Shown here: positions 9,585 to 62,880 of the stretch, in pieces | Layout of the letters: every line of letters starts with the position of its first letter | How positions within the stretch are numbered: the first letter of the stretch is position 1 | NCBI GenBank assembly: GCA_035496875.1 | Contig: DATJEH010000219.1 | Span: forward strand, 3,791 to 67,790 | Reading direction: 5' to 3' | Length of the DNA stretch: 64,000 bases | From: Terriglobales bacterium | GTDB lineage: Bacteria > Acidobacteriota > Terriglobia > Terriglobales > Acidobacteriaceae | The notes under the pieces: generated by a model | Database searches by the model: none | Told to the model about the DNA's origin: nothing | Seen by the model: only the letters and a program-made list of their open reading frames with translations | Translations under genes and position numbers: made by a program

Positions 9585-10958
9585 ATGCTGGTGATGAAAT
9601 TCGGCGGCACTTCAGTGGAAAATGCCGCCGCCATAGAGCGTGTGGCCGAGATCGTGCGGGGACGGCGAGCGCAACTGCCTGTGGTGGTGGTCAGCGCCAT
9701 GGCTAAGGTCACCGACAGCCTGCTGGCCATGGCCCGGGCGGCTGGGGCCGGCGACCGCGAGCGCGCCCTCGAACTCTCGCGCGGCCTGCGTGAGCGCCAC
9801 TACACCACCGCGGGAGAGCTGCTGGGCACCGGCCTGTTTACCCAGTTTCACTCCGAGTTGGAAGCGGAATGCGACGCCCTGGACGAACTGCTGCGCGGAA
9901 TCGCCGCCGTGGGCGAACTCACCCCACGCACTTCCGACCACGTGGTTTCCTTCGGGGAACGGCTTTCCAGCAAGATGGTGACTTCCGCCTTTTCCGCCCG
10001 CGGCATTGATTCCCAACTTGTGGATGCGCGCCAGTGCATCGTCACCGACGGAACTCACACCCGGGCGGCGCCGCTGATGGAGCAAACCAACCATCGCCTG
10101 CGCACGCGGCTGAAGCCGGTAGTGGACCACGAGCGCGTCCCGGTCATGGGCGGGTTTATCGGGGCGACGGAGGAAGGAATCACCACCACTATCGGACGCG
10201 GCGGGTCGGATTTTTCCGCTGCCATCGTGGGCGCGGGCCTGGGGGCCGAGCGCATCGAGATCTGGACGGACGTGGACGGCATGATGACCACCGATCCCGG
10301 CATTTGCCCGGAGGCGCGGCGCATCAAGGCGATCTCTTTCGAAGAGGCGGCCGAACTGGCCTACTTCGGAGCCAAGGTGCTGCACCCGGCAACCTTGCTG
10401 CCGGCCATCCAGAAGAACATTCCGGTGTACATTCTGAATTCGCGCAATCCGGCCTGCGAGGGCACCCGCATTACGGCGCAGGCGCCGGTGTGCCGCAGCA
10501 CCTTCAAGGCGATTGCGGCCAAGAAGCGCATCACCATTGTGGACATCGTGGCTACGCGCATGCTGATGGCGCACGGCTTCATGCGCGCCATCTTTGAGGT
10601 TTTCGACCGGCACCGCTGCGCCGTGGATGTGGTTTCCACTTCCGAGGTGAGCGTATCGGTGACCGTGGATTCCAACGAGGCCATTCCCGCCATCGCCGCC
10701 GAACTGGGCAAGCTGGCGGACGTAAAATACGAGGGGCGCAAGGCGATTGTGTGCCTGGTGGGCGACAACATTCGGGGCACGCCCGGGGTGGCGGCCAAGG
10801 TGTTCACCACGCTGGGCGACATTAACGTGCGCATGATTTCGCAAGGCGCGTCGGAGATCAATTTGACGTTCGTGGTGGAGGAAGAGGACGTGCCCGAGGT
10901 CGTGCGGCGGCTTCATGGCACGTTTTTCGCCGAGCCCGATCCGGAGATTTTTGCATAA
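9585..10958 (+). CDS. lysC: aspartate kinase
   Basis: VMKFGGTSV, VVVVSAM, GRGGSD, C-terminal ACT-like repeats. Confidence 0.9.
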   Translation: MLVMKFGGTSVENAAAIERVAEIVRGRRAQLPVVVVSAMAKVTDSLLAMARAAGAGDRERALELSRGLRERHYTTAGELLGTGLFTQFHSELEAECDALDELLRGIAAVGELTPRTSDHVVSFGERLSSKMVTSAFSARGIDSQLVDARQCIVTDGTHTRAAPLMEQTNHRLRTRLKPVVDHERVPVMGGFIGATEEGITTTIGRGGSDFSAAIVGAGLGAERIEIWTDVDGMMTTDPGICPEARRIKAISFEEAAELAYFGAKVLHPATLLPAIQKNIPVYILNSRNPACEGTRITAQAPVCRSTFKAIAAKKRITIVDIVATRMLMAHGFMRAIFEVFDRHRCAVDVVSTSEVSVSVTVDSNEAIPAIAAELGKLADVKYEGRKAIVCLVGDNIRGTPGVAAKVFTTLGDINVRMISQGASEINLTFVVEEEDVPEVVRRLHGTFFAEPDPEIFA

Positions 10959-11060
10959 GTAGCTGGCTAGCTATCTAGCTGCCTGGCTGACCAGCTTAAG
11001 CCAACTTGCCGCGACCGGCCAGTCAGCTAGTAAGCTAGGCAGCCAGTCAGCACATTCTCT
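10959..11060. repeat. imperfect palindromic intergenic element built from 8-nt phased words
   Basis: AGCT/GGCT at 10961, 10969, 10977, 10985, 10993. AGCT/AGCC/AGCA at 11025, 11033, 11041, 11049. The arms are about 85% complementary (CTAGCTATCTAGCTGCCTGGC vs reverse complement CTAGCTTACTAGCTGACTGGC). Confidence 0.7.
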
Positions 11061-11072
11061 TGAGTTGCACAG

Positions 11073-11756
11073 ATGATCCTTATCATCCTGGGCCGGGGTA
11101 AGACGGGCACGCTGGTGGCGGAAGTGGCGCGCCAGCGCGGGCATGAAGCGCGAGTGCTGGGCGGCGCGGACAACCGTAATGCCGCCGGGCTCACGCCACA
11201 GACGCTGCGTGATGTCGCCGTGGTGATTGACTTCACCACCCCGCAGGCCGTGCTCGACAACATCGCCGCCTGCGTACACGCGCGCAAGAACATAGTGGTC
11301 GGCACTACGGGCTGGTACGACCAACTGCCCCGCATTCGGGAAGTGGTGGCCCAGAGCGGCATTGGCTTGCTCTACGCGTCCAATTTCTCGGTGGGGGTAA
11401 ATGTTTTCTTTGAAATTGCCCGAGCGGCAGCCGCCGCCCTGCATCATGGCTATGCTGGCGAAATCATGGAGCGCCATCACGCCCAGAAGAAGGACGCGCC
11501 TTCAGGAACGGCCCTGACGCTGCAGAAAATCTTGCGCCAGGACGGCGGGCAGGAACTGGAAATTGTCTCCCTGCGCGAGGGGGAAACCGTGGGCCTGCAC
11601 GAAATTGTGCTGGACTCGCGCCATGACACCATCCGCCTGGCCCACGATGGCAAATCCCGCCGCGGCTTTGCCGAGGGCGCGGTGCGCGCGGCAGAGTGGC
11701 TGGCCGGGCGCAGCGGCTTCTTCGATTTTCGCCAGGTCTGGCGGGAACTGCGGTGA
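11073..11756 (+). CDS. dapB: 4-hydroxy-tetrahydrodipicolinate reductase
   Basis: ERHHAQKKDAPSGTAL motif; size and context within the dap cluster. Confidence 0.85.
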   Translation: MILIILGRGKTGTLVAEVARQRGHEARVLGGADNRNAAGLTPQTLRDVAVVIDFTTPQAVLDNIAACVHARKNIVVGTTGWYDQLPRIREVVAQSGIGLLYASNFSVGVNVFFEIARAAAAALHHGYAGEIMERHHAQKKDAPSGTALTLQKILRQDGGQELEIVSLREGETVGLHEIVLDSRHDTIRLAHDGKSRRGFAEGAVRAAEWLAGRSGFFDFRQVWRELR

Positions 11757-11828
11757 AGCAGCACTTGGCATTTAGCACTTGGCGCTTGGCCAAGCAGCAA
11801 GTAGCCATTAGCACTCAGCCTCTGAGCG
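11757..11828. repeat. imperfect palindromic intergenic element built from 7-nt phased words
   Basis: GC dinucleotides at 11761, 68, 75, 82, 89, then 11797, 804, 811, 818. Centre TTGGCCAA (11786-11793). Units GCACTTG GCATTTA GCACTTG GCGCTTG. Confidence 0.65.
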
Positions 11829-11878
11829 GGTTGCGGATAAATGCGAACTGCTTCCCCCTTGGTTTATCCTATTAGCTT

Positions 11879-13330
11879 ATGAACCTCCGTGGCTGTGGCA
11901 CAGCACTGGTCACTCCCTTTCGCCACGATGGTGCGGTGGACGAAGCGGCGCTGCGCGAACTGGTGGCCTGGCAGGTGGAGTCGGGTGTTGACTTCCTTGT
12001 TCCCTGCGGCACCACCGGCGAAACCCCTACGCTGTCGCGCAAGGAATGGCTGCGCGTGGTGGAACTGACGGTGGAGGTGGCAGCCGGGCGCGTGCCCATC
12101 GTGGCCGGAGCGACTTCCAACTGCACGCGCGACGCCATTGAGAAGGCGCGCGTGCTTTCCGACCGGGCGGGTGTGGACGCCATTCTTACTGCCTCGCCTT
12201 ACTACAACAAGCCCACGCAGGAAGGCCAGTTCCAGCACTTCCGCGCCATTGCGCAGGCCGTGAAGAAGCCGCTCATTCTTTACAATGTACCCGGCCGCAC
12301 CGGGGCCAATATCGAACCTGCCACCCTGGGACGCCTGGCGCATATCCGCAACATCATCGCGGTAAAAGAAGCCAGCGGCAACCTGGGACAGATCGTGGAG
12401 GTGTTCAACGCCGTTCCCGCCGGTTTCCTGGTGTTCTCCGGCGACGACGCGGTGACTCTGCCCATCATTTCCCTGGGAGGCGCCGGCATTATTTCGGTGG
12501 TGTCCAACGAAATTCCCCGCGAGATGGCGGAGATGACCCGGGCGGCGCTGAATAACGACTGGGAAACAGCCCGCCGGTTGCATCGCAAATACCTGCCCCT
12601 GATGCAGGCTAACTTCCTGGAATCGAATCCCATTCCGGTGAAGGCGGCGCTGGCCATGATGGGCAGGATTCGCGAGGTTTACCGGCTGCCCCTGACGCGC
12701 ATGAAGGAAGAGACGCGCGCCAAGCTGGAGAAGGTGATGACCGGCGCAGGATTGGAGATCAAGGCGGCAGAACCCGCGCCGCCCCGGCGGCCGCGTCCAG
12801 CGATGGCGGCAGCAGCCGCAGTTTCCGAGCCGGGGGCCGCGGTGGCGGAACCTGCGCAGCCGTTTGAATCGGGAGTTGCGGCAGGAGACAATGGAAACGC
12901 GGTAGAGGAGCCAGCTTCAGTTACAGAGACCATCGTGGATGCAGCGACGGCGATACCACCCATGGCGGCCAGCCAGAGCACCGGCCAAAGCGGTGGCGCT
13001 GCGGCTGTCCAGGAGGAAACGGCAGCGGGCGCGGTGGCGGTAGCCGAGGAATCGCCGGCTGCGGTTTCAGCTCCGGCGCCCGTGCAAGCCGCGCCCGAGC
13101 CGGTGACATTCTTTCTATATGAGAGCTGGCAGGCGGGACCACACAAGCTCGCCCTCCACCGCTCTACCTGCGGCGCCTGCCGCGGCGGCACCGCTCACCC
13201 CGGCGGAGGAGATGAAGCTCGCTCGCGCTGGCACGGGCCCTACACCAGCGTGCAGGAGGCGCGAGAAACGTCGCGCGGCATGAGCAACATCCTGATACGA
13301 AGCGAATGTAAGTGCGTGAGTAAGAGCTAG
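11879..13330 (+). CDS. dapA: 4-hydroxy-tetrahydrodipicolinate synthase with an Ala/Pro/Glu-rich linker of about 115 aa and a 75-aa Cys-motif C-terminal domain
   Basis: GTALVTPF, VPCGTTGE, YNVPGRTG, KEASG (catalytic Lys region). The DapA fold ends near aa 293. The frame stays open to 13330. Confidence 0.85.
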   Translation: MNLRGCGTALVTPFRHDGAVDEAALRELVAWQVESGVDFLVPCGTTGETPTLSRKEWLRVVELTVEVAAGRVPIVAGATSNCTRDAIEKARVLSDRAGVDAILTASPYYNKPTQEGQFQHFRAIAQAVKKPLILYNVPGRTGANIEPATLGRLAHIRNIIAVKEASGNLGQIVEVFNAVPAGFLVFSGDDAVTLPIISLGGAGIISVVSNEIPREMAEMTRAALNNDWETARRLHRKYLPLMQANFLESNPIPVKAALAMMGRIREVYRLPLTRMKEETRAKLEKVMTGAGLEIKAAEPAPPRRPRPAMAAAAAVSEPGAAVAEPAQPFESGVAAGDNGNAVEEPASVTETIVDAATAIPPMAASQSTGQSGGAAAVQEETAAGAVAVAEESPAAVSAPAPVQAAPEPVTFFLYESWQAGPHKLALHRSTCGACRGGTAHPGGGDEARSRWHGPYTSVQEARETSRGMSNILIRSECKCVSKS

Positions 13331-13420
13331 CATTCAGCGCTCAGCCGTCAGCATTCAGCCCTTGGACATGTGGTGCGGTCGCGTGGCTGAATGCTGAGTG
13401 CTGATTGCTGAGTGGTGCGA
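13330..13420. repeat. heptamer-phased palindromic element; probable bidirectional terminator between convergent dapA and the GT4 gene
   Basis: Left arm GCATTCA GCGCTCA GCCGTCA GCATTCA, right arm GCTGAAT GCTGAGT GCTGATT GCTGAGT, all in one 7-nt phase. 13-bp perfect pairing of 13348-13360 with 13385-13397. Confidence 0.8.
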
Positions 13421-13427
13421 ATCTGGT

Positions 13428-14510
13428 CTAGGCCGCCTTCCGTTGCGCGCCCGCCATGGCGAGCACGCGCCCATAGAGCTGCTCATAACCATCCCCCATC
13501 TGCGCAGCAGAGAAGTTCCGCTCGGCGTGGCGGCGGCAGTCTGCCGGGCTGATTTCCTCCACCTGCACGACGGCCTGGGCCATCTCCTCGACTGAGTTCA
13601 CCAGAAAACCGGTTACACCATGGCGCACCACTTCCGGAAGGGCGCCACGGCGAAAGGCAATGACGGGAGTGCCAGAGGCGGCAGCCTCCATGGCCACCAG
13701 GGAGCTGGTTTCATTCGCCAGGCTGGGTACCAGGACAGCACGAGCATGGCTCAGCAGGCGGATTTTCTGTGCGGGAGTGGGAGCCTCAGCCAGACGCACA
13801 CGCGGCAACCCATGGTTAAGGTGAGGCGCAATTTCCCGCTCGAAATATTGCTGGTGGTAGCTGAAGGGATACACCTGGCCGGCAAGGACCAGCGGCAGGC
13901 CAGCCATGCGCGCCGCCTGAATAGCCAGGTGGGCGCCCTTTTCCTGACAAAAACGGCCTAGCCACAGGAGATGGTCCTTCCTGCCCGCCGCCGGAGTAAA
14001 GCGCTGCAACTCGATTCCGTTGCGCACCACCCCCAGCAGCCGCGGAATATCGGAAAAGGAACGCGTCTGCGACTCCGAAACGCAGTTGAAGGAGACGTTC
14101 GCAGGGATGCTCTCTAACATGTCCGGCGGATAAAACGAACGCGGTAGATGCAACGTAGCCAGCACAGGAAGGCTAAGCACGGCGGCTTGCGGCCAGAAGG
14201 TGCCGCTCATGTCATGGACCAGGTGAAAACGCCTTGGGGTGCGCTGGCGGCGGGCAAGAAACTGCAATATGCGCGAGTTGTGCTCGCGGTCTCGCCGGGC
14301 AAGACCGTCAGGTTGTTGGGCAGCGGGGCCGGTCGCCAGCAACTCACCCGCTGCCCGGGAGCCCTCGCAGGCGGCAACAACTGTGCAGTGTCCGCGTTGC
14401 ATCATTTGCCCTTCGGTGACGCGCAGCATTTGCTCCGCCCCGCCGGCGCTCGCCTCCGAAACCGCCAGCAGCGGGTAAGCCACGTAAAGAATGCGCAGCC
14501 TTGGGTTCAT
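13428..14510 (-). CDS. family-4 (GT-B fold) glycosyltransferase
   Basis: N-terminal ILYVAY...ASAGGAEQML. C-terminal EASSLVAMEAAASGTPVIA (E-x7-E region). Confidence 0.8.
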   Translation of the reverse strand: MNPRLRILYVAYPLLAVSEASAGGAEQMLRVTEGQMMQRGHCTVVAACEGSRAAGELLATGPAAQQPDGLARRDREHNSRILQFLARRQRTPRRFHLVHDMSGTFWPQAAVLSLPVLATLHLPRSFYPPDMLESIPANVSFNCVSESQTRSFSDIPRLLGVVRNGIELQRFTPAAGRKDHLLWLGRFCQEKGAHLAIQAARMAGLPLVLAGQVYPFSYHQQYFEREIAPHLNHGLPRVRLAEAPTPAQKIRLLSHARAVLVPSLANETSSLVAMEAAASGTPVIAFRRGALPEVVRHGVTGFLVNSVEEMAQAVVQVEEISPADCRRHAERNFSAAQMGDGYEQLYGRVLAMAGAQRKAA

Positions 14511-15292
14511 GAGGACGCGGCGGGCACAGGCTCCGCCGATTGCAGAAAATTGGTGAAGGCGGCGCTGACATCGGCGCCTTTAATCGGCCACCCCCAGGCC
14601 TCGTAGTTCAGCACGCCGGAGTGGGGCGGCTGGGAGTAATCGTAAGCCGCCTGCGGCCGGAACCATTCGGTAGCCGCGCTGAACTGTTTCAGTACCTCAC
14701 CCTGCGAGGCATAGGCGGCGAGCATCTTATGTTTGGTTTTCTGCTCGTGTAGCGCGGGCTCAAGTGCAGTTTCGGTGCCGTTCAGGGATCGGAACTGCTG
14801 GCATAGTGTGCTGCCATCGGTTCTGCGGAAGTAGAGCGGCATTTCCCATGCCGGCAGAGAAAAACTGCGGGCCAGAAGCGAGGCAAGGAAGCTGCAACTG
14901 TCATGGTCAGGATGGCCGCCTTCGTATGCCAAGGTGAGCAGGGCCTGCGGCCGGTAGTGCCGGACCAGCGCCGAAAGACTTCCTATTGCCGGGTTTAGGC
15001 GCTGGAACAGTTCCTGATCGGTGAAGTAGCCACCGCCGGTTTGCAGGAATTCGATGTGGCGTACCCCGGCGTGGCCGAGCGATGCCCGCGCTTCCTGACG
15101 GCGCAGTTCGGCGTAGGCTTCGCGGGAGCCATACTTTCCCCAGAAATACTGGTCTTGAGGAGAGCCGTCAGTTCCGAATACCAGCACCGGTTCTTTCATG
15201 CGCTGCAACAGCGCTCCGCAGCCCACAGCCTCATCGTCAGGATGGGCGACGAGGACCAGCGTCTTCCCCAGCACGGGCGCAAGGGCGTCCAT
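14507..15292 (-). CDS. PIG-L/LmbE-family N-acetylglucosaminyl deacetylase
   Basis: VLVAHPDDEAVGCG zinc-binding motif and HPDHD. Start set at MDALAPV (15292); the longer ORF extension looks non-coding. 4-nt overlap with the GT4 gene start. Confidence 0.75.
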   Translation of the reverse strand: MDALAPVLGKTLVLVAHPDDEAVGCGALLQRMKEPVLVFGTDGSPQDQYFWGKYGSREAYAELRRQEARASLGHAGVRHIEFLQTGGGYFTDQELFQRLNPAIGSLSALVRHYRPQALLTLAYEGGHPDHDSCSFLASLLARSFSLPAWEMPLYFRRTDGSTLCQQFRSLNGTETALEPALHEQKTKHKMLAAYASQGEVLKQFSAATEWFRPQAAYDYSQPPHSGVLNYEAWGWPIKGADVSAAFTNFLQSAEPVPAASS

Positions 15293-15499
15293 GGGAAGTG
15301 AGATGCTGGGTGATTGAAGAATGTTGATTAAAGAATGATGAATGTCGCTGTTGGAGAGTGGTCTTTTCCTTCGAAAGGCGGCGCTCCCGCGACACGCCTC
15401 GGTGCTAAGGCAGCACCTCAGCATGACCCGCGCCGACATTGAGCTGTTGGGAGGCAGCAACGCCGTTTCAGGGCCAAATGCTGAATGCCAGCTGCTGGT

Positions 15500-16330
15500 T
15501 CACCGCAGCCAATCTTCCAGTTCGATGGCGCGGTCGGTGCGCTCATCCCGGTATTTGACTATGACCGGGGTGTAAAGGGACAAGTTCCATTCCGCCGCCT
15601 TGCCCTTGCCGATGGCACGCGAACCCGGAACCACCACAGCATTTGCCGGAACCGTGAGCGGCGACTCGGCGCCGGCGCGGTACACCTCGCCGCGCACAGT
15701 GTCGTACAGCGGGGTGGAGCGGGTCAGGATGGTGCCCGCGCCCAGCACGGCACGGGCCCTCACCCAGGTGCCTTCGTAAACGCCGCAGTTGCCGCCCACC
15801 AGCACGTCATCTTCAATAACCACGGGAGCGGCATTCACCGGCTCTAGGACGCCGCCGATCTGGGCGGCCGCGCTCAGGTGCACTCGCTTGCCAATCTGGG
15901 CGCAGGAGCCGACCAGAGCGTGCGAATCCACCAGCGTGCCTTCATCCACATAGGCGCCCACATTGATGTACATGGGCGGCATGCAGATGACCGAGGGCGC
16001 CACGTAAGCTCCCTCGCGCACGGAGGAGCCGCCCGGAACCACGCGCACACGCCCCGCAGGTTGGAAGCGGCGCAGAGGAAAGGTGTCTTTGTCCACGAAT
16101 GACAGGGCGCTATCGCCCATCTCCACCAGTTCGCCCAGGCGAAAACCAAGCAGGATGCCCTGCTTCACCCAGGCATTGACCACCCAGCGGTCGCCCTGCT
16201 TTTGGGCAGCGCGGATGCGGCCCCCGGTTAGAGCTTCGCGAAATTCCAAAAAAGTCTGACGCGCTTCCCCAGTAAGTGCCCCCGTGGGCTGAGCGAAATG
16301 GCGTTCGATCGCGGCCCGCAGTTTGTCCAT
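15500..16330 (-). CDS. dapD: tetrahydrodipicolinate N-succinyltransferase
   Basis: Left-handed beta-helix hexapeptide repeats ([37 protein letters not shown]). Start at MDKLRAAIE (16330). Confidence 0.85.
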
Positions 16331-42674: not shown

Positions 42675-43820
42675 TCACTTCACTTCCTGCGTCACGATAT
42701 GGACATCCACCGGCGGAGCGTCCCTGAGAAATTTGTGGATAGCAGATAGGTACAAATACCGGCGCCAGCCGATCTGTGCGGACCGCCCAAACACTACTTG
42801 GGTTATATGTTTCTCGCGAACGATCTTGGCCACCTCTTGCGCCACTTTCTTGCCCCTGGTGCGAATGATTTGCGCGCCTACATCTTGTGCGAACTTGATG
42901 TTTTGTTGCAGAGAATGCTGATCCTGCGGACTCTCGTCCACGCCGATATCTACGTAGATGACGAACAGTTCGGCATCAATGCGTTGTGCCATGCGGGCGG
43001 CACGAGCGATCAGATACTGCGCCGCGGGGCTGGAACTGATGCACACCGCGATACGTTCACGGACCGCAACGCTTTTGGTCCCTCCCTCCTTTTCCAGCAA
43101 CGATTCCAGGCTGCGGTCCACGGCGCGAGTCACCTGCTGGAGAGCCAGTTCGCGCAACGCCAGCAGATTACCCGGACGGAAAAAGTGTCCCAGTGCACGT
43201 TCCGCCCGGTCGAGCGGATAAATGTCGCCCCGACGCATGCGGGTCTGCAAGGCTTCCGGCGTCAGATCCACGAGCACAATCTCGCTTACTCTCTGCATGA
43301 CCCAATCCGGCACCGTCTCGCGCACCTGAACTCCCGTGATCTGATGGATCATTGGCATTAAGCTCTCGATGTGCTGCACGTTCATGGTGGAAAGCACGTC
43401 AACGTTGGCGTCCAGCAGTTCCATCACGTCTTGGTACCGCTTGGCATGTTTGCTGCCTTCGATGTTGGTGTGCGCCAGCTCATCTACCAGGGCCACCTGC
43501 GGCTTGCGCCGCAGGATGGCCTCAATATCCATCTCATCAAAACTGGCGCCCTTGTACTCGATTTTGCGGCGCGGAATGGTCTCCAATTTTGAACCCAGCT
43601 CAGCCACTGCCTTGCGGCTGTGAGTCTCCACTAAGCCGATCACCACGTCTTCGCCCCGGCTCTTGCGGCGGATGCCCTCGCTCAACATGTTGAATGTCTT
43701 GCCTACACCTGGGGCATAGCCCAGAAACAGCTTGAAAATCCCCTGTTCCCTGTGGGGCGTCACCTCCTCCAGCCATTGTTCCGGCGTCTTGGGCATTTCG
43801 AGTAGCTCCTCCTGGATCAC
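42675..43820 (-). CDS. kdpD: KdpD N-terminal sensor module only (P-loop KdpD domain + Usp domain), no kinase
   Basis: LGYAPGVGKTFNML Walker A, VDELAHTN, Usp-like C-terminus. Ends 7 nt before kdpE. Confidence 0.85.
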   Translation of the reverse strand: MIQEELLEMPKTPEQWLEEVTPHREQGIFKLFLGYAPGVGKTFNMLSEGIRRKSRGEDVVIGLVETHSRKAVAELGSKLETIPRRKIEYKGASFDEMDIEAILRRKPQVALVDELAHTNIEGSKHAKRYQDVMELLDANVDVLSTMNVQHIESLMPMIHQITGVQVRETVPDWVMQRVSEIVLVDLTPEALQTRMRRGDIYPLDRAERALGHFFRPGNLLALRELALQQVTRAVDRSLESLLEKEGGTKSVAVRERIAVCISSSPAAQYLIARAARMAQRIDAELFVIYVDIGVDESPQDQHSLQQNIKFAQDVGAQIIRTRGKKVAQEVAKIVREKHITQVVFGRSAQIGWRRYLYLSAIHKFLRDAPPVDVHIVTQEVK

Positions 43821-43846: not shown

Positions 43847-45289
43847 GTGAAGCGAGCTGCTGAAAACCAGATACTACGCTTTCTCGTCGCCGCCGCCACG
43901 GTTTGCCTGATTACCGCTGTGTATTTCCGCTGGCTGCACGTCAATCCTACAACGGTTGGGTTCACGTTTTTGCTGGCTGTCCTGGTGATTTCCGCCGGCT
44001 GGGAACTTCGCTATGCCATCTTCATGGCCATTCTCGCCACTTTGGCCTACAACTACTTCTTTCTCCCTCCCCTGCTTCACCTCACAATCGCCGATCCCCA
44101 GAACTGGGTCGCCCTTCTGACATTCCTGCTTACCGCCATCATTGCCAGCCAGCTTTCTGAGCGCGCCCGCCGCAAAGCCGTGGAATCTAACCAGCGCCGG
44201 CGCGAAGTCGAACGCCTGTATGCCTTCAGTCAGCAGTTGCTGGTTTCTGAGAACGTGTTTGAGTTGCTGAACCTCGTTCCCAGGTACATTGTGGATTCCT
44301 TTGACGTCACCGGCGCTGCTATGTTTCTGGAGGGCAAACAGGAATTTTATTATCTCGATGCAGCCAGCAGATCTCTATTTCCTGCCGATCAGCTCAAAGC
44401 CATCAGTGGTCGTGGAGAGCCCGTTTTTGAACGCGAGCGCGGCCTCTGCTTTATGCCGCTTCGCATGGGCGTTCGCTCGGTGGGAAGCATCGGCCTGGCT
44501 GGCTGTGAGTTATCGCGGGAATCGCTGGAGGCCATTGGCAGCCTGACTGCGATAGCCATTGAACGCGCGAACACGGTCGAGAAATTGACGAAGGCCGAAG
44601 CGGCGCGAGAGAGTGACCGCCTCCGTTCTGTATTGCTGGACTCCATGACGCACGAATTCCGTACTCCCCTTACCTCTATCAAGGCATCGGCCGAGACACT
44701 CCTCTCGGACGCCGAGTTGGAGAAACCGGAGCGCAAGGATTTGCTCACAGTCATTAATGAGGAGAGCGACAGACTTAATCGGCTCATCGGCGAAGCAGCG
44801 GAAGTAGCGCAGTTGGATGCACATCAACTCGAACTTCACTTGCAACTGCATAACATTCGTGAGGCCGCGGAAACCGCCATCGCCAAGTTACAACACGAGC
44901 TTCAGCCCTATACCGTGCAGTCGAGCATTCCGGAGGACCTGCCTCTGGTCCGAATGGATGTTGCTCGCATCACCGAAGTACTCGTACACCTTCTCGATAA
45001 CGCCAGCAAATACTCCGCGCCAGGCACGATTATTCAGATCACCGCCGAACATCGCGATGGGGAAATTGTTACCAGCATCGCCGACCATGGACCCGGAATT
45101 GACGAGATAGAGCAACCGATGATCTTTGAGAAATTCTATCGCGGCCGGGATCAGCGCATGCTTATCCAGGGCACGGGTATGGGGCTCGCCATTGCCAAGG
45201 CCATCGTTGAACTGCACGGCGGCGCGATTGGGGTCACCAGCCAACTCGGCCGTGGGTCACTGTTTTACTTTTCTCTTCCAGTCGCCTAA
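43847..45289 (+). CDS. kdpD: KdpD C-terminal module: 4-TM (DUF4118-like) + GAF-like + histidine kinase
   Basis: GTG start. Four TM segments, H-box LDSMTHEFRTPL, LLDNASKY, DHGPGI, GTGMGLAI. Confidence 0.85.
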   Translation: MKRAAENQILRFLVAAATVCLITAVYFRWLHVNPTTVGFTFLLAVLVISAGWELRYAIFMAILATLAYNYFFLPPLLHLTIADPQNWVALLTFLLTAIIASQLSERARRKAVESNQRRREVERLYAFSQQLLVSENVFELLNLVPRYIVDSFDVTGAAMFLEGKQEFYYLDAASRSLFPADQLKAISGRGEPVFERERGLCFMPLRMGVRSVGSIGLAGCELSRESLEAIGSLTAIAIERANTVEKLTKAEAARESDRLRSVLLDSMTHEFRTPLTSIKASAETLLSDAELEKPERKDLLTVINEESDRLNRLIGEAAEVAQLDAHQLELHLQLHNIREAAETAIAKLQHELQPYTVQSSIPEDLPLVRMDVARITEVLVHLLDNASKYSAPGTIIQITAEHRDGEIVTSIADHGPGIDEIEQPMIFEKFYRGRDQRMLIQGTGMGLAIAKAIVELHGGAIGVTSQLGRGSLFYFSLPVA

Positions 45290-48820: not shown

Positions 48821-51226
48821 ATGGCGACTCAACGCCACGGTTTTGAAATTCCTCTGGCCGACTTTGCCGCCACGCTGCTGCTGCAGCGCGAAGTGGGGCA
48901 GCGTGCGCAGCTCATCGCCGAGCAGGCAGCCCAACTTGAACCGGGCTGCGACGTAGCCGTTTATGTCATTGAGGACCAAGAAGATCCGTCTTGGACACGC
49001 AAGGGGCTGAGCGGCGACCTGGGAGCGGGCAGCGAGCAAATTGAATTCCACTCGGGAACCCTGGGCATGGTGGCCGAACTCGCGGCACCCTACCTGCTGC
49101 TGCATGGCTCCCAGCTGGCGCGCGAAGACTACGCCCACCTTGATGTCCGCCGCACCCTGGCCTCTCTAGCTTACGTTCCCCTGCTCGCCGATGGCAGCCT
49201 GGTAGGCGCCCTCGAACTGGTCGGCTACGACCGTCCGCTCTCTCATTCCCTGCTGGAGCGTGTCAGCTCTCTGGCCCAGCTTGCCGCTCCCGCCCTTGCC
49301 TCGGCCGCCGCTTACGAAAGTGAACGCAACAGCAGCCTGCAGTCCATCACCCGGGTCACGCAGATGTACGACCTGGAAAAGGTCTTCAACTCCAACCTGG
49401 AGATGAACGAACTGCTGGCTACCATCGCCGCCAAAGTGCAGGAAGTCATGAGTGTGCAGGCGGCTAACGTCTGGATGGTCGAGGGCGAGACCGTCACCCT
49501 GGTGCAGCAGGAGGGCGCGGATCCAACCGTGCAATCGGGTGCCCGGCAAGGCCCAGCCGATGGCGTAGCGGGGAAGATTTCCGATGACGGCGAACCTGTG
49601 CTGATTGATGACCCGGAGGACGCACGCCTGCGCGCCCGCAACGCCGATGTCGAAGACGGGACCGTCTTCTCTCTGCTGGCTCTGCCGCTCATGGATCGTG
49701 AGTCTCTGGTCGGCGTCATCGAGGTGGTCAATCGCCTGGACGGCCAGTCCTTCGATGAAGACGACCAGTTTGTGCTCTCCAATATCTGCGAGACCGCCAG
49801 CAACGCCCTGCACAATGCCAGCCTGCTCCAGGCGGAGCGCAAACTGGAAATCCTGCACGCGCTGGTCAAAGTCAGCGCCGAAATCACCTCCACGCTGAAC
49901 CTGGAGCGGGTTCTGCAGACCGTGGTCAACGGTCCGTCGTCGGTGGTTCCTTACGAACGCGCGGCCATCGCGCTGGAGGAACGCGGCAGGACAAAATTGC
50001 GAGCCGTTTCGGGAAAGCCGCAGGTCAATGCCGCTGACCCGGGAATGGCGAATTTGAGCGAGCTTCTGCAGTGGGCCGCGTTCTTCGAATCCGATGTTTC
50101 CGCCGCGCGCCACGGCGACGAGGTAACCACCAGCCGCGCCGAGGCGCAGGAAAAATTCCGCCATTACTTCGCGGCCAGCGGTATGCGCGGCTTCTATGCC
50201 TTGCCTTTGCGGGACGATGAGGGCGCGGTCGGCATCCTCTCCTTCGAGAGCTCCGATCCCGATTTTCTCAGCGATCCGCATCTGGAAATGATCCGCGTGC
50301 TGGGCGCCCAGGCGACGGTGGCCATCCGCAACGCTTCCCTCTACCGCGAAGTGCCTTTCATCAACGTGCTGGAGCCGCTGCTCCAGAAAAAGCAGAAATT
50401 TCTCGCCCTGGAGAAGCGGCGCCGCGCCTTGTTCCTGGCGGCCGCGGCGGTGGCGGTTGTTTTTCTTGCCGTATTTCCCTTCCCCATGCGGGTGGAGGGA
50501 GGCGCTACCGTTTCTCCTTCCCGCCTGGCCAGGATCGAGCCCGAGGTCGCGGGCGTGGTCCGCCAGGTCTACGTCCGCGAGGGGCAACACGTCGCGCGCG
50601 GCCAGGTGCTCGCCGACCTGGAAGACTGGGACTACCGCGCCGCGCTGGCCGGAGCCGAAGCCAAATACCAGACCGCGCTCTCGGAAATGAACCACGCTCT
50701 GGCCCACAACGACGGAGCCGCCGCCGGCGTGCAGCGCGTGCAGGCCAATTACTGGCAGTCAGAGGTTCAGCGCGACCAGCAGCGTCTGGAAAAAACGCAT
50801 CTGCGCTCGCCCGTGGACGGCTGGGTAACCACGCCCCACGTGCAGGACATTACCGGACGAAAGTTTGAGCCGGGGGATAACTTCGCGGAAGTGGCCGACA
50901 ATTCCACGGTGACGGTGAACGTAGCGGTGGATGAGCCTGACTTGCCGATGCTGCGCACCGGCGCCCGCGGCTGGGTGAAGCTGGACGGATTCCCGGCTCG
51001 CACATTCAAGGGAACCGTAGACATCGTCAGCCCGCAGAGCGAGATGGCGGGAGATCAACGCACCTTCTACGCCCGGGTTGAGGTTTCTAATCCCGGGAAC
51101 GTGATTCGAGCCGGCATGAGCGGGCGCGCCAAGGTGGCAGTCGGCTGGCACCCGGTGGGCTACGTTCTGTTTCGCCGGCCCGCCATATGGCTCTACAGCA
51201 AGCTCTGGTCCTGGTTCTCGTGGTGA
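48821..51226 (+). CDS. cytoplasmic multi-GAF sensor fused through one TM to an HlyD-type membrane-fusion module
   Basis: About 520 aa of repeated GAF-like units. TM RRALFLAAAAVAVVFLAVFPFPM. MFP motifs EPEVAGVVRQVYVREGQHVARGQVLADLED and LRSPVDGWVT. Confidence 0.8.
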   Translation: MATQRHGFEIPLADFAATLLLQREVGQRAQLIAEQAAQLEPGCDVAVYVIEDQEDPSWTRKGLSGDLGAGSEQIEFHSGTLGMVAELAAPYLLLHGSQLAREDYAHLDVRRTLASLAYVPLLADGSLVGALELVGYDRPLSHSLLERVSSLAQLAAPALASAAAYESERNSSLQSITRVTQMYDLEKVFNSNLEMNELLATIAAKVQEVMSVQAANVWMVEGETVTLVQQEGADPTVQSGARQGPADGVAGKISDDGEPVLIDDPEDARLRARNADVEDGTVFSLLALPLMDRESLVGVIEVVNRLDGQSFDEDDQFVLSNICETASNALHNASLLQAERKLEILHALVKVSAEITSTLNLERVLQTVVNGPSSVVPYERAAIALEERGRTKLRAVSGKPQVNAADPGMANLSELLQWAAFFESDVSAARHGDEVTTSRAEAQEKFRHYFAASGMRGFYALPLRDDEGAVGILSFESSDPDFLSDPHLEMIRVLGAQATVAIRNASLYREVPFINVLEPLLQKKQKFLALEKRRRALFLAAAAVAVVFLAVFPFPMRVEGGATVSPSRLARIEPEVAGVVRQVYVREGQHVARGQVLADLEDWDYRAALAGAEAKYQTALSEMNHALAHNDGAAAGVQRVQANYWQSEVQRDQQRLEKTHLRSPVDGWVTTPHVQDITGRKFEPGDNFAEVADNSTVTVNVAVDEPDLPMLRTGARGWVKLDGFPARTFKGTVDIVSPQSEMAGDQRTFYARVEVSNPGNVIRAGMSGRAKVAVGWHPVGYVLFRRPAIWLYSKLWSWFSW

Positions 51227-51238
51227 GGAGGAGTAAAG

Positions 51239-52144
51239 ATGCGATTGGCTAGCTGGTTTCTGATGGCAGCGCTGGCAGCAGGCCTGGTCGCCTGCAGCGA
51301 CTCCGGGCCACAGGCGGTGACGCCAGTTCTAGCGGCGTCAGAGCCCACAGGGCCTCCTGTAGCGAGCCCTCCAGCCACTCCACCAAAGGCTGGCGCCGTG
51401 GTGGCCTCCGGTCCCTTACTGGTAGAGGACCAAGTAGATGTCTCCACCCAGCGCGCCGGGGTGGTAGCGCAACTGCTCGTTGATGTGGGCCAGACGGTGC
51501 GCAGGGGAGAGCAGTTGGCCACCCTGGACGACCGCCAACTCACCGCCGAACGCGATGCCGCCCAGGCCCAGGTCCAGGTCGCGCAAGCCAATCTCAAAGA
51601 CTGGCAGGCAGAAACCAGGATGGCGGAAGCCGACTTCCGCCGCGCCGAGGGCATGTTTAAGGCCCAGCTCAACACCCAGGAACAACTTGATCATGCCCGC
51701 TACAAGTGGCAAGGGTCGGTCTATGAAATCGAAAAGGGCCAACAAGAACTGCTCCAGCGGCAGGCTGCTTTACGGGCCGTGAGCCTGGAACTGGAAAAAA
51801 CCCACATTCGCGCTCCCTTCGACGGCGTGATCGCCCGCCGCTACGTACGCCTGGGACAGGAAGTCGCAAGCGGCGACCGCCTCTTCTGGGTCACCGCGGT
51901 AAGGCCTTTGCGAGTCAAATTCACTTTGCCGGAAAAGCTCATCGGACAGGTCAAGCGCGGGCAGATGCTGAGCGTGAGCTGCCTTGATGAACCGGGCGCA
52001 ACGCACCAGGCCCGGGTTCTCCAGGTAAGTCCGGTGGTGGACCCTTCCAGCGGAACCTTCGAGGTGCTCGCCCAGTTGGTGAATCCCGGCCCTAATCTCC
52101 GTCCGGGAATGACGGCTAACATCCGGCTTGGGAACGTGCGATGA
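51239..52144 (+). CDS. HlyD/MFP-family periplasmic adaptor lipoprotein
   Basis: GAGGAGGAG SD. Lipobox LAAGLVAC|SD. STQRAGVVAQLLVDVGQTVRRGEQLATLDD, coiled coil, IRAPFDGVIARRYV. Confidence 0.8.
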   Translation: MRLASWFLMAALAAGLVACSDSGPQAVTPVLAASEPTGPPVASPPATPPKAGAVVASGPLLVEDQVDVSTQRAGVVAQLLVDVGQTVRRGEQLATLDDRQLTAERDAAQAQVQVAQANLKDWQAETRMAEADFRRAEGMFKAQLNTQEQLDHARYKWQGSVYEIEKGQQELLQRQAALRAVSLELEKTHIRAPFDGVIARRYVRLGQEVASGDRLFWVTAVRPLRVKFTLPEKLIGQVKRGQMLSVSCLDEPGATHQARVLQVSPVVDPSSGTFEVLAQLVNPGPNLRPGMTANIRLGNVR

Positions 52145-54288
52145 ACATTCTCGAGGCCCTGGAAGTTGCTCTTCCAGAGCTCCCGGGCCGCACAGGTAAG
52201 CCGCGCTATCCCCAGCTTGACTCGCGGGTGATCGCCCGCGAACACGTCGAGCAGGGCGCTCCGACGGTACTGGCCAAGATGCCGGGGGCGGAAAACTTTA
52301 TCCGTCTTCCGCCGTCGCAATGGAAGCTGGTCCAGTTGTTCGACGGACAGCGCTCCTACCAGGACATTAGCAAGCAGTCCACCGCGGTTGCCGGGGCGTT
52401 CTACTCCGAAGACGAAGTACGCCATCTGGCCGATTTCTTTCAGGACAATACCAATTTCTTCTACAAGACCCCGCTGGAAGAAAACGTCACGCTGCACGAC
52501 AAGCTGCGCAGCCAGCGCCAGCACCGCCGTAGCCGCTTTAGCGACCTGGGGGAAGTGCCCCTGCTGGAATGGAAGAATGCGGACGATTATCTCAGCCGCA
52601 TTCAGCCCAGACTTAAATTCATTTACACGCGCTGGTTTACGCTGCTGACGCTGGGCATGTTCGCCCTCATGCTCTATCTCTGGATGGACCGTTTTCAGGA
52701 GATCTGGCGCGACAGCTTCGAGTACTACAACTTTACCGATAAAGGGCTTTCTGACCTCGTCGAGTTCTGGTTCTTTTTCGGGGTGATGGCGTTCATTCAC
52801 GAAACCGCCCATGGCCTGACCTGCAAAAACTACGGCGGCAGAGTGGAGAAGATGGGCTTCATCCTGATGTACTTTGCGCCCACTTTCTACTGCGATGTCA
52901 CCCAGATCTGGATCTACGGCGACCGCTGGGAGCGGGTGGCCACGGTTATCGCCGGTATCTGGGCCGACCTGATGATTTGTGTGGTGGCCACGATCGTCTG
53001 GTGGGCCACTCCCGTGGGCATGCCCAGCCACGACCTCGCCTACAAGGTGATGATGGTCACCGGCATCGGAGTCAGCCTGCTCAACCTGAATCCGCTCATC
53101 AAGCTGGATGGCTACTATCTGTTTTCCGAACTTACGGGAGAAGTGGACCTCAAGGAAACCACCACGGCTTACGTGTCGTCGTGGGTGCGAAGAAACATTT
53201 TTTGCCTTCCTGTGGAAATTGAATGGGTTCCGCGCCGGCGGCGGGTCTTCTACCTGATTTACGCCCTGCTCTCTGGGGTTTACAGCTACGGCCTGCTGGT
53301 GGTGGTTGTCCTTTTCGTTTATCACGTGCTCCGGTCGTACTCGCCGGAATGGGCCTTCGTACCCGCCCTGATCATTGCCTATTTCATGTTTCGCAAGCGC
53401 ATTTGGAGCTCGCTCACTCTTATGAAGGCAGCTTATCTGGACAAAAAAGAACGGCTTCGGAAATGGCTTTCCCCTCCCCGCCTGGTGGCCATCACCGTAG
53501 TGGCAGCGCTGGTCTTGCTCGCTCCGGTGTGGCCGGAGTTCGTGCGCGCCCAGTTCCTTGTGGAACCGCTCCGGCGGGCCATCATCCGCGCCCAGGTTCC
53601 CGGACAGGTGGAGCGGGTGTTTATCCAGGAAGGAGAACGGGTGCAGGCCGGCCAGCCGGTGGCGCAACTGAGCAACCTGGCGCTGCAATCACAGGCGGCC
53701 CGGGTCCATTCCGACCTGGAAATCGCAACCGCTGGCGCTGTCCAGGCCCAACTCCGCTATTCAGGGATGGCTTCGGCCGGGCATTTGCGTGACCAACTGA
53801 CCCAACAGGACCATCTGCTTAGCCAGCAGCTAGCCGCACTGCGGGTGCTGTCCCCCATCTCCGGAGTGGTTACCACCCCGCGCCCCGGCGACCTGCACGG
53901 CTCCTATTTGCGGGCAGGCAGCGAGGTGGCTGAGATCGCCGAGATGTCCACTATGCAGGCGCGTATCTTTGTGCCCGAGTTCGCCATGCGCGACGTCCGG
54001 CTAGGGGCTCCGGTCCATCTTCTGCCCAGCTCAAGAACCGGCTCCATCGCCGGAAAGCTCGACGCCGTTGCTCCCGCCAGCACTCAGACGGACCCCAGTT
54101 TCGTTGAAACAAGCAATCTGAAGGGCATCAATCTGCCCGACTACTATCTGGCCACGGTTCGTTTTCCTAATCCGGGAACGGCGCGAGAAGGCGAGACAGG
54201 TACGGCCAAGATCTTCGTCCGGCGCCGCAGTTTGGCAGGCTTCACCTGGGAATATGTGCGCGACATGGTCACCCACCGTTTGTGGTGA
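52141..54288 (+). CDS. PqqD/RRE-like domain + M50 (site-2-protease type) intramembrane metalloprotease + HlyD-type membrane-fusion module
   Basis: ATGA overlap with the upstream gene. ENFIRLPPSQWKLVQLFDGQRSYQDI; HETAHG (HExxH); NLNPLIKLDGYY (NxxPxxxLDG). C-terminal IRAQVPGQVERVFIQEGERVQAGQPVAQLSN and VLSPISGVVTTP. Confidence 0.8.
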   Translation: MNILEALEVALPELPGRTGKPRYPQLDSRVIAREHVEQGAPTVLAKMPGAENFIRLPPSQWKLVQLFDGQRSYQDISKQSTAVAGAFYSEDEVRHLADFFQDNTNFFYKTPLEENVTLHDKLRSQRQHRRSRFSDLGEVPLLEWKNADDYLSRIQPRLKFIYTRWFTLLTLGMFALMLYLWMDRFQEIWRDSFEYYNFTDKGLSDLVEFWFFFGVMAFIHETAHGLTCKNYGGRVEKMGFILMYFAPTFYCDVTQIWIYGDRWERVATVIAGIWADLMICVVATIVWWATPVGMPSHDLAYKVMMVTGIGVSLLNLNPLIKLDGYYLFSELTGEVDLKETTTAYVSSWVRRNIFCLPVEIEWVPRRRRVFYLIYALLSGVYSYGLLVVVVLFVYHVLRSYSPEWAFVPALIIAYFMFRKRIWSSLTLMKAAYLDKKERLRKWLSPPRLVAITVVAALVLLAPVWPEFVRAQFLVEPLRRAIIRAQVPGQVERVFIQEGERVQAGQPVAQLSNLALQSQAARVHSDLEIATAGAVQAQLRYSGMASAGHLRDQLTQQDHLLSQQLAALRVLSPISGVVTTPRPGDLHGSYLRAGSEVAEIAEMSTMQARIFVPEFAMRDVRLGAPVHLLPSSRTGSIAGKLDAVAPASTQTDPSFVETSNLKGINLPDYYLATVRFPNPGTAREGETGTAKIFVRRRSLAGFTWEYVRDMVTHRLW

Positions 54289-61482: not shown

Positions 61483-61590
61483 CCGGGTGATTATAGCCTC
61501 GAACGCCGGCTCGGATGAGGCGCCACCAGCGACCTCCGGAGCTGACTGTTGCTTTGCATCAAGGGAGCAAGCGTGTATGCTTTCGGCCAC

Positions 61591-62880
61591 ATGAAACGGC
61601 GCTGCTTCTGCACACTGTTATTGTTTGCCGCGGCCGGGCTGGCCGCCGGGCAGAACCGCTCTGCCAATTCCGGAGCCTGGTCAGGCACGATCGTGTACAG
61701 CAGCTGCGACGCGGATGAAGCCTTCGCCGAGTCCTCCGAGTGCACCACCAGGGCGCCCGGCGCCAAATTGTCTTTGTATGACGATACCAACCGTGTGATG
61801 TATGGCCTGGAGCCGCAGGCGCCGGCTGCGGGTCACCTGGGGGATAGCGTAACCATTCGCGGAACGCTAGATGGCGATACGATTCGCGTAGCCTCCTTGA
61901 AGCCGATGTCCATCGGATTGGCGGTGGGACAAAAGGCTCCCGCTTTTTCCCTTCCCGACCAGTTTGGGCACACCCAGACGCTCGCTACGCTGAAGGGACG
62001 AAGGGGCACGGTTCTTCTATTTTTCCGTTCCGCCGACTGGTGACCTTTCTGCAAGGGGCAGCTGGTCCAGCTGCAAAGCGCACTCCCACGATTCGAAAAA
62101 AAGGGTATTAAGCTGGCGGCCATCAGCTATGACAGCCAGCAAATTCTCAAATACTTTGCCGGCCGCCACAAGCTGGACTACCCCATGCTGGCCGATCCGG
62201 ACTCCAAAACCATCCGCTCTTATGGCGTTCTCAACCAGGAAGCTACGGGCATGCAGAAGGGCTTTGCCCGCCCAGGATATTTTTTCATTGATAGCAGCGG
62301 CGTGATCCAGGAGAAGTTCTTCGATCCCAAATACCGCGACCGGCTCACAGGAAATGACCTGATTGCCAGGCTCTTCCCGGAATTGGGGCAGGAAGTAACT
62401 GGAAACCTCGAAGCGCCGCATCTTCAGTTGGCGCTCGAACAGTCCGATCGGACCGGGGTGCCCGGAACTCAGATCACGCTGGTTGCGGAAGTGCGCTTGC
62501 CGCCGGACGTACATGTATATGCGCCCGGCGCTCAAGGATACAAACCAATCCAGTTGTTGATTGACTCGCAGCAGGCGATCGAACTCAAGCCGGCGACTTA
62601 TCCGCGGTCAAAAATTCTCTATCTGCCTGCCATCAAGGAGCGGGTGCCGGTGTATGAAGGCATTTTCCGCATCTCGCAGGACATAGAGGTGAACTCCGGC
62701 TCGGCATTCTTTGGTTCTCTGGGCAAGGAAGGAAAGACTATAGTGATCGCGGGAAAGCTGGCCTACCAGGCTTGCGACACCAGAACCTGCTACTTCCCTA
62801 CCTCGGTGCCGGTTAAATGGGACCTGCATGTGTTCCCCCTGGACCGGACCCGCGCGCCTGTGGACATCCGCCACAAATAG
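61591..62880 (+). CDS. secreted redoxin (AhpC/TSA-type thioredoxin fold) + DsbD-alpha-like domain with in-frame TGA (probable selenocysteine) at 62041-62043
   Basis: Track ORFs 61549-62043 and 62185-62880 share one frame with no other stop between them. Readthrough gives VLLFFRSADW-U-PFCKGQLVQLQ...ISYDS...LDYPMLADPD. C-terminal LAYQACDTRTCYFP. Signal peptide MKRRCFCTLLLFAAAGLAAG. Confidence 0.7.

Follow-up and report, generated by a model that had tools for sequence, protein, structure and literature searches.

Redoxins and peroxiredoxins of the bacterial cell envelope are clients of an envelope reducing relay, and in E. coli the alpha domain of DsbD reduces CcmG. In Caulobacter, ScsB feeds both TlpA and the envelope peroxiredoxin PprX (PMC3322552). 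Catalogues of bacterial selenoproteins list a "Prx-like thiol:disulfide oxidoreductase" (PF00578, with the motif UxxC or UxxU, in which U is selenocysteine, Sec) as a predicted selenoprotein family, and likewise a "Redoxin family protein" (PF08534, UxxC) (PMC1794560, PMC13188914). The representative of the Prx-like family is WP_010940744.1; the family is catalogued from Geobacter, Syntrophus and Desulfotalea, and its function is predicted (PMC1794560, PMC13188914). Here, we analyzed a stretch of 64,000 nucleotides (64 kb) of contig DATJEH010000219.1 from a Terriglobales bacterium (Acidobacteriota), which we refer to as the window. The gene located at positions 61591-62880 of its + strand is split by an in-frame TGA codon, and we consider it very probable that it is a genuine selenoprotein gene, encoding a redoxin that is predicted to be exported and that is fused to a DsbD-alpha-like domain.

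A single reading frame annotated as two genes

Translation of the window showed that region 61591-62880 (+) consists of 430 codons in a single frame, of which the TGA at 62041-62043 is the sole internal stop. When this codon is read through, the complete coding sequence specifies 429 amino acids (aa) and ends with the TAG stop codon at 62878-62880. The TGA is present in the context LLFFRSADW-TGA-PFCKGQLVQLQ. Read as Sec on the basis of the comparison of related loci described below, it gives residue 151 of the protein, at the N-terminal, putatively nucleophilic position of the UxxC motif W-U-P-F-C. The resolving Cys of this motif would be Cys154 (TGC, 62050-62052, +). The ATG at 61591 as start codon matches the N-termini of full-length homologues.

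GenBank splits the gene into HTM89689.1, a "hypothetical protein" of 164 aa whose start is the TTG at 61549, and HTM89690.1, a "protein-disulfide reductase DsbD domain-containing protein". A first-pass annotation, made from the letters of the window, had proposed that one frame contains both open reading frames (ORFs), 61549-62043 and 62185-62880, with only the TGA at 62041-62043 between them, and this is borne out by the translation. It had also argued that the second ORF is not an independent gene. We agree, because the ATG at 62185 encodes residue 199, which lies well within the redoxin fold and in the stretch matching AhpC-TSA (residues 112-241).

Conservation of the TGA codon and of the frame beyond it

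Relatives of the gene were collected in three ways. A protein search gave about 2,000 relatives, of which the best 120, full-length proteins of ~430 aa with the same architecture, were examined. A genome scan, in which each species was represented by one genome, provided the best 80 loci, with 69-97% identity, from Terriglobales, Acidoferrales and other Acidobacteriota metagenome-assembled genomes (MAGs). Finally, a metagenome scan was seeded with Cys forms. The set of related loci used below comprises 163 loci other than the window, from Terriglobia (Acidobacteriota) genomes and metagenomes, counted without regard to sequence redundancy.

The Sec codon is TGA in 150 of these 163 loci (L001 included) and TGC or TGT in 11. 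All 80 genome loci have TGA at this position, and the metagenome loci comprise 68 with TGA, 11 with TGC/TGT and one without a match to the motif. Because 150 of the 163 other loci share the TGA codon, its presence in the window is not due to chance. In the alignment of the orthologues, TGA and TGY alternate at exactly the Sec codon, as the first-pass annotation had anticipated for a selenoprotein gene, and there are no scattered disruptions.

At the protein level, the corresponding column in the best 120 proteins contains Cys in 100 cases, Trp in 18, Glu in one and Ser in one. The Trp residues are an artefact of gene calling that applied genetic code 4 to short JGI contigs. The DNA was compared for P0001: the codon is TGA (L001:742-744), and the translation of this locus with the bacterial code differs from the database protein. 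The Trp-bearing proteins are among P0001-P0014, P0018, P0028, P0056, P0080 and P0099.

In 144 of the 146 complete TGA loci, exactly 278 further codons follow the TGA before the next stop, the same number as in the Cys forms. Mean pairwise nucleotide differences at the first, second and third codon positions are 0.13, 0.12 and 0.49, respectively, in the 40 codons before the TGA, and 0.17, 0.12 and 0.50 in the 278 codons after it. Therefore, the sequence past the TGA is translated and selected as protein. In addition, TGA terminates 10 of the 28 Pfam-supported genes of the window, and hence the organism uses the standard code. We read the whole 429-residue product as translated, with the UGA recoded in a site-specific manner; the selenium itself is a prediction.

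The true terminator of the gene was compared across the 146 loci as well. It is TAG in 99, TAA in 39 and TGA in only 8 of them, as against TGA ending 10 of 28 other genes of the window. The scarcity of terminal TGA may reflect avoidance of a second UGA in an mRNA that decodes Sec.

On the - strand, an antisense ORF of 172 aa (62017-62535) overlies the selenoprotein gene, and its counterpart is present in 78 related loci. Clustering gave no other recurrent ORF, and we rejected this one as a gene, regarding it as a shadow of the conserved sense frame.

A hairpin downstream of the TGA

A hairpin is present at 62058-62074 (+), in which the 5' arm GCAGCUG (62058-62064) and the 3' arm CAGCUGC (62068-62074) enclose the loop GUC (62065-62067). 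It had been placed at this position in the first-pass annotation; it corresponds to the centroid structure and contains seven base pairs, with the loop 21 nucleotides (nt) after the UGA. Like the selenocysteine insertion sequence (SECIS) of E. coli fdhF and the bSECISearch consensus, the hairpin is located just 3' of the UGA within the ORF, and the fdhF SECIS also has a GGUC apex. Unlike the fdhF element, the hairpin described here has a short stem of 7 bp without imperfections, capped by a triloop, and lacks a bulged U.

According to the model for bacterial SECIS elements, the loop has 3-9 nt, the stem has at least 4 bp, a G, usually followed by G or U, is present within the first two loop positions, the distance between the UGA and the loop is 16-37 nt, and the minimum free energy (MFE) is ≤ -7.5 kcal/mol (PMC13188914). 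The hairpin agrees with this model in every respect, having a GUC loop, 7 bp, a distance of 21 nt and a mean MFE of -10.6 kcal/mol, and with the bSECISearch consensus it shares a G followed by U that opens a small apical loop and a spacing within the 16-37 nt range (PMC13188914). The resemblance to a SECIS claimed in the first-pass annotation thus holds.

To judge the hairpin, its 21-nt element was compared between 135 unique TGA-form sequences and ten Cys-form DNAs, with the Cys forms being a control for a stem that is driven by coding. All seven pairs are complete in 98 of the 135 TGA-form sequences and six pairs are present in 35 more; the apex is GGUC[C/G], GGUUC or GGUGC in 134 of them. 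The mean MFE of the element is -10.6 kcal/mol for the TGA forms versus -3.8 kcal/mol for the ten Cys-form DNAs. The latter encode a near-identical peptide (QLIQLQ), for which CTC, TTG and CTG are used for Leu and all four Gly codons are used freely. At codon +8, Val (GUN) is present in every Sec form where the Cys forms have Ile (AUC/AUU), and thus the Val/Ile change tracks the loop G.

Constraint was also detected at synonymous sites. Relative to the gene-wide expectation, the synonymous codon entropy of the Sec forms amounts to 0.37 for codons +4 to +11 and to 0.81 (sd 0.17) for a set of 96 further conserved codons (Mann-Whitney p = 2e-4). At offsets 20/30, 129 unique sequences have G-C and six have A-U, and in none is only one of the two bases changed (Fisher p = 1e-10, phylogeny being ignored in this test), and at offsets 21/29 one change from C-G to U-A and one to U-G were observed. 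In an alignment of 37 sequences, chosen to include variants, 93% of the hairpin cells are paired and three pairs are doubly changed, and the covariation score of the hairpin is higher than those of all 500 shuffles and all slid controls. Judged by these patterns, the hairpin at 62058-62074 is a predicted SECIS under selection at synonymous sites.

Selenocysteine insertion genes in related genomes

Genes for the insertion of Sec are located next to orthologues of the redoxin gene in several relatives. In L081 (Terriglobia MAG SRVP_13), the TGA-form orthologue occupies 10001-11293, and after it come, in this order, genes on the - strand encoding SelB (11366-13273), SelA (13326-14963), SelD (14771-15742) and tRNA-SeC with anticodon TCA (15867-15963). 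SelB and SelA also follow the orthologue in L002 and L121, in L097 and L102 it is preceded by SelD and SelA, and a more distant SelB is present 3-5 kb upstream of it in L042 and L052. The Sec machinery is present in the lineage.

The SelD gene of L081 (14771-15866, - strand, when considered with its UGA) and that of L097 (- strand, upstream of the redoxin gene in L097) themselves contain an in-frame UGA, in the context SSCAG-U-ASK. In both cases, this UGA is followed by a hairpin of 9 bp, whose GUU triloop, closed by G-C, lies 34 nt downstream. The SelD and redoxin hairpins share the apex G-GUY-C, which is consistent with one SelB reading both. A scan of the window for further selenoprotein candidates did not reveal another TGA-split frame with a redox motif.

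Alternative explanations of the TGA codon

Several observations weigh against the proposed reading of the gene as encoding an exported Sec redoxin. The selA, selB and selD genes and tRNA-Sec were not found in the 64 kb window, which is the region that the search covers: ARAGORN detected no tRNA in it, and tblastn with SelA, SelB and SelD of L081 gave no match. The hairpin region of the window alone folds no better than shuffled sequences (z = 0.95), and the significance of the hairpin comes solely from the comparison with related loci. Moreover, coding accounts for part of the hairpin: CAGCTG, a self-complementary hexamer that specifies Gln-Leu, allows a peptide QLxQL to give rise to a stem without structural selection. 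No Rfam SECIS family was matched by the whole window at gathering thresholds or by region 61950-62200 at E <= 10, which gave only chance microRNA matches. The RNAalifold consensus of the 37 sequences favours another fold (62042-62067 of the window), in which UGACC pairs with GGUC, and CUGC with GCAG. In two related loci the Sec codon is replaced, by GAA (Glu) in L002 (525-527) and by TCA (Ser) in L003 (1529-1531), which shows that the Sec residue is not strictly essential everywhere. Finally, when all ORFs in the surrounding ~7 kb were clustered across 164 loci, no recurrent partner gene emerged.

The UGACC/GGUC fold was considered as a functional element and rejected, because its covariation does not exceed that of shuffles, the UGA itself forms part of it and it does not have the geometry of a SECIS; its bases are near-invariant and constrained by the amino acids encoded. 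It is possible that it forms an alternative conformer, which might compete with the SECIS hairpin.

As for the two loci with a replaced Sec codon, both retain a perfect hairpin. L002 is sister to the TGA form L081 and L003 to the TGA form L054. The redoxins of L002 and L081 are ~85% identical as judged by eye, and the adjoining SelB proteins are 99% identical. This suggests that selection on the redoxin is relaxed or altered in the L002 lineage, or that assembly errors are present.

Two other explanations of the TGA itself have to be weighed. The gene might be a pseudogene, or contain a sequencing error, with the two ORFs as remnants left by a nonsense mutation; GenBank indeed annotates two separate fragments, HTM89689.1 and HTM89690.1, and one window cannot tell a nonsense mutation from recoding. 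The related loci can: the same TGA codon is found in 150 independent loci down to 69% identity without other disruptions, purifying selection is alike on both sides of it, and in the adjoining hairpin synonymous sites are constrained and compensatory changes occur. The divergence of 3-31% among the loci rules out that they are copies of one contaminated assembly, and we regard the probability of a pseudogene or sequencing error as negligible. It is also very improbable, although slightly less far-fetched, that a residue other than Sec is inserted at the UGA, be it Trp or Gly by a reassigned code, Trp, Cys or Arg by near-cognate decoding, or through read-through that is merely stimulated by the hairpin. 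The W assigned by JGI gene callers in 18 of the 120 best protein matches would fit such decoding, and a UGA followed by C is a weak termination context. However, TGA functions as a normal terminator in 10 of 28 window genes, and homologues carry at this site Cys, which is chemically analogous to Sec, and never a genomic TGG. The hairpin also fits the SelB-type consensus, a similar apex follows the UGA of SelD in relatives, and sel genes together with tRNA-SeC adjoin orthologues. Taken together, the conserved TGA, the 278-codon frame, the selection by codon position and the normal TGA stops rule out that the gene is a pseudogene, that the TGA is a sequencing error or that the code is reassigned, and we retain Sec as the predicted residue at position 151.

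Domain architecture of the predicted selenoprotein

The protein is predicted to be exported. Residues 1-20 (MKRRCFCTLLLFAAAGLAAG; 61591-61650, +) have, as read by eye, the features of a Sec-type (secretory) signal peptide, namely a basic n-region, then a hydrophobic core, and small residues preceding Q21, and in the AlphaFold2 (AF2) model of a homologue residues 1-27 are disordered. They are followed by a small N-terminal beta-barrel, comprising about residues 28-107 (61672-61911, +), which was delimited by conservation and the AF2 model (predicted local distance difference test score, pLDDT, of 83.6 for this domain). It contains a Cys pair, of which C39 (61705-61707) is invariant and C51 (61741-61743) is at least 90% conserved. 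Foldseek gave only weak, non-significant OB-fold matches for this domain (CcmE and CusF, all with E >= 0.07), and its match to Pfam DUF5818 was below the cut-off.

The redoxin domain, which has an AhpC/TSA peroxiredoxin-like fold and contains the W-U-P-F-C site, spans about residues 112-250 (61924-62340, +) and was identified by Pfam, PDB and Foldseek searches. In Pfam, the Cys-substituted protein matches AhpC-TSA (residues 112-241, E = 1.1e-31) and Redoxin (E = 5.3e-21). The closest PDB sequence is M. tuberculosis AhpE (E = 2e-16), and BCP/PrxQ is also near. Using the model of the Cys homologue P0016 (full-length AF2 model with pLDDT 84.6 and a predicted TM-score, pTM, of 0.78), Foldseek matched the redoxin domain to AhpE and BCP with probability 1.00 and target-normalised TM-scores of 0.80-0.86, showing that the domain has the peroxiredoxin fold.

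The active site differs from that of a peroxiredoxin. In the alignment with AhpE, Cys154, which is invariant across all forms, falls on the peroxidatic Cys, Sec151 falls on the conserved Thr of P-x-x-x-T-x-x-C, and a Ser is found at the Pro position. Hence, only the Cys of the peroxiredoxin signature P-x-x-x-T/S-x-x-C is kept. The scores obtained with the NCBIfam peroxiredoxin equivalogs (BCP, PrxQ, AhpC and PrxU) are all far under the cut-offs, the best being BCP with 59.2 bits versus 140. ResA is among the PDB and NCBIfam matches, and the scores with the NCBIfam ResA/DsbE models are far under the cut-offs too. Arg227 and Pro228 (in RPGYFFID) are invariant. Pro228 occupies the position where TlpA and CcmG carry their cis-Pro, and W-U-P-F-C together with Pro228 constitutes an active site of the thioredoxin/TlpA/ResA/CcmG type. 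The first-pass annotation had located the TGA exactly where AhpC/TSA-type redoxins have their first redox Cys. This is correct in that the codon corresponds to the first position of a thioredoxin/TlpA-type WCxxC, but not with respect to peroxiredoxins, since it aligns with the Thr of AhpE and not with its peroxidatic Cys.

The third domain, comprising residues 289-405 (62455-62805, +), is a DsbD-alpha-like beta-sandwich (Pfam DsbD_N, PF11412). Its presence had been suggested in the first-pass annotation and is upheld by Pfam scores, with a cut-off of 25, of 30.7 bits when the whole protein is searched and 33.9 bits when the domain is searched by itself, and by matches in 31 of 31 relatives. 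It has the invariant residues C395 (62773-62775) and C400 (62788-62790), which form a C-x4-C motif in YQACDxxxC; the redox-active pair of E. coli DsbD is Cys103/Cys109. Searches of this domain against PDB sequences, with the single sequence and with a 31-sequence profile, gave no match and no DsbD chain, and the DsbD-alpha assignment is therefore based on Pfam. No other domain is present after DsbD_N: the protein ends 24 residues later, and there is no covalently linked DsbD beta or gamma domain.

Comparison with described families

The UxxC selenoproteins with a thioredoxin fold form an established class of catalogued families (PMC1794560, PMC13188914), in agreement with the first-pass annotation. 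The protein has the PF00578 domain and UxxC motif (W-U-P-F-C) that define the Prx-like thiol:disulfide oxidoreductases, and because of these defining features we place it in that class, the comparison being one of features. It shares with the Prx-like selenoproteins the AhpC/TSA fold, the Sec in first position of UxxC, the existence of Cys homologues and a predicted SECIS directly downstream in the coding region. Unlike their representatives, it is a three-domain protein of 429 aa, predicted to be exported, with additional OB-like and DsbD-alpha-like domains, and its host belongs to the Terriglobia (soil Acidobacteriota), whereas the catalogued members are from anaerobic Deltaproteobacteria.

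TlpA, ResA and CcmG resemble the protein in their extracytoplasmic location (predicted here), their W-C-x-x-C motif and a Pro at the cis-Pro position. The protein differs from them in scoring under the ResA/DsbE cut-offs, in its fold, which is nearer to AhpE/BCP, in having Sec for Cys, and in its two extra domains. M. tuberculosis AhpE (Rv2238c) and BCP/PrxQ are the best matches in both structure and sequence, with Cys154 on the peroxidatic Cys. However, the identity is only about 30%, the Thr of their T-x-x-C is Sec or Cys here, and the Pro of their P-x-x-x-T is Ser. Similar to E. coli DsbD (alpha-beta-gamma) and the ScsB-TlpA-PprX system of Caulobacter, the protein combines a thioredoxin-fold CxxC-type module with an immunoglobulin-like module that has a DsbD-alpha-type Cys pair. 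In contrast to DsbD and ScsB, it lacks a membrane beta domain, a single soluble protein unites both modules, the Cys pair is C-x4-C, and the flow of electrons between the modules is a proposal.

In the literature as searchable, we found no paper on this three-domain selenoprotein family in Acidobacteriota, and its three-domain exported architecture, its prevalence in Terriglobia and the dominance of the Sec form appear to be unreported there. The protein collection did not contain a full-length product of the loci that are 80-97% identical to the gene; the best match was 75% identical.

Proposed mechanism and biochemical role

We propose that the UGA at 62041-62043 would be decoded as Sec by SelB and tRNA-Sec, directed by the hairpin at 62058-62074 with its G-GUC-C apex, and that the resulting 429-residue selenoprotein would be exported to act in the periplasm of the Terriglobales bacterium. 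By analogy with the first Cys of WCxxC oxidoreductases, the selenolate of U151 would be the nucleophile that attacks the oxidised substrate, which may be a disulfide, a sulfenic acid or a peroxide. C154 would then resolve the adduct, giving a selenenylsulfide. Re-reduction would occur by thiol-disulfide exchange, probably via Cys395/Cys400 of the fused DsbD-alpha-like domain, which in turn would take electrons from a membrane transporter of the DsbD/CcdA type. Such a relay between the redoxin and DsbD-alpha-like domains, including its electron flow, substrate and donor, is put forward as a proposal, and the biochemical role of the protein is much less certain than its identity as a selenoprotein.

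A different role would be that of a genuine periplasmic peroxiredoxin, i.e., a peroxide reductase, for which the DsbD-alpha-like domain merely serves as reductant adaptor as in ScsB-TlpA-PprX. An envelope peroxiredoxin that is fed by a DsbD-family protein is known from Caulobacter (PMC3322552). The nearest sequences and structures are indeed those of AhpE and BCP/PrxQ, the Cys forms are labelled "peroxiredoxin" by JGI and GenBank, and the invariant Arg227 lies beside the position of the catalytic Arg. At that position itself, where AhpE has its catalytic Arg, the protein has Pro228, at the position of the cis-Pro of TlpA/CcmG. Moreover, the PxxxTxxC signature is absent, with Ser replacing Pro and Sec replacing Thr in a W-C/U-x-x-C motif, and the NCBIfam peroxiredoxin equivalogs score far under their cut-offs (e.g., 59 bits versus 140). 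We therefore consider a role as peroxide reductase possible but doubtful.

Evolution and significance

A neighbour-joining tree was built from 260 unique sequences and midpoint-rooted, without outgroup or bootstrap. Sec is the inferred root state of this tree. A clade of 95 Cys forms is nested among the Sec forms, its sister group consisting of the 36 Sec forms with the "PYC" subtype, and there are two more small Cys clades. Given this rooting, the tree is only indicative of Sec being ancestral.

A broader reading is that the fusion constitutes a self-contained extracytoplasmic selenium relay, which is ancestrally Sec-based and is the principal reason why the widespread soil Terriglobia keep the Sec machinery. 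It is suggested by the ratio of Sec to Cys forms (150:11 in unbiased DNA scans), by the Sec root and nested Cys clade in the midpoint-rooted tree, and by the direct adjacency of the gene to selC-selD-selA-selB in some lineages. We offer it as a speculation that is rather unlikely to hold.

The class of the protein will not surprise a specialist, but the family is abundant and mis-annotated. The analysis corrects a systematic error: GenBank splits the gene into fragments, and JGI gene calling with code 4 introduces a spurious Trp, and therefore protein databases show almost only the minority Cys forms. Terriglobia, a dominant lineage in soil, carry a strongly conserved selenoprotein for which export is predicted, which bears on the selenium demand in soil and on the protection of the oxidising cell envelope. 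In this family a single active site occurs in about 150 natural versions, with Sec, Cys, Ser or Glu, and the predicted SECIS is very small and well defined, which makes it a convenient system for studying the exchange between Sec and Cys and the coupling between SECIS structure and protein sequence, as seen in the Val/Ile switch at codon +8.

Other features of the window

The genomic context of the gene in the window is unrelated to its predicted function. A SpoIIE-type phosphatase is encoded upstream and an ABC-type permease downstream, and the window also contains kdp genes, an RND efflux system and regulators. Beside the kdp genes and a response regulator, the region with the ORFs 42675-43820 (-) and 43847-45289 (+) encodes KdpD sensor and Usp domains without the kinase part, with the gene for a DUF4118-HisKA-HATPase kinase running divergently on the opposite strand. 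Together, these ORFs look like a split KdpD. Two unusual fusions to HlyD, a type of membrane-fusion protein, were also observed. The ORF 48821-51226 (+) encodes a protein of 801 aa in which GAF domains (three matched stretches) are fused to HlyD, and the ORF 52141-54288 (+) one of 715 aa in which Peptidase_M50 is fused to HlyD. A plain HlyD gene (51239-52144) is located between them.

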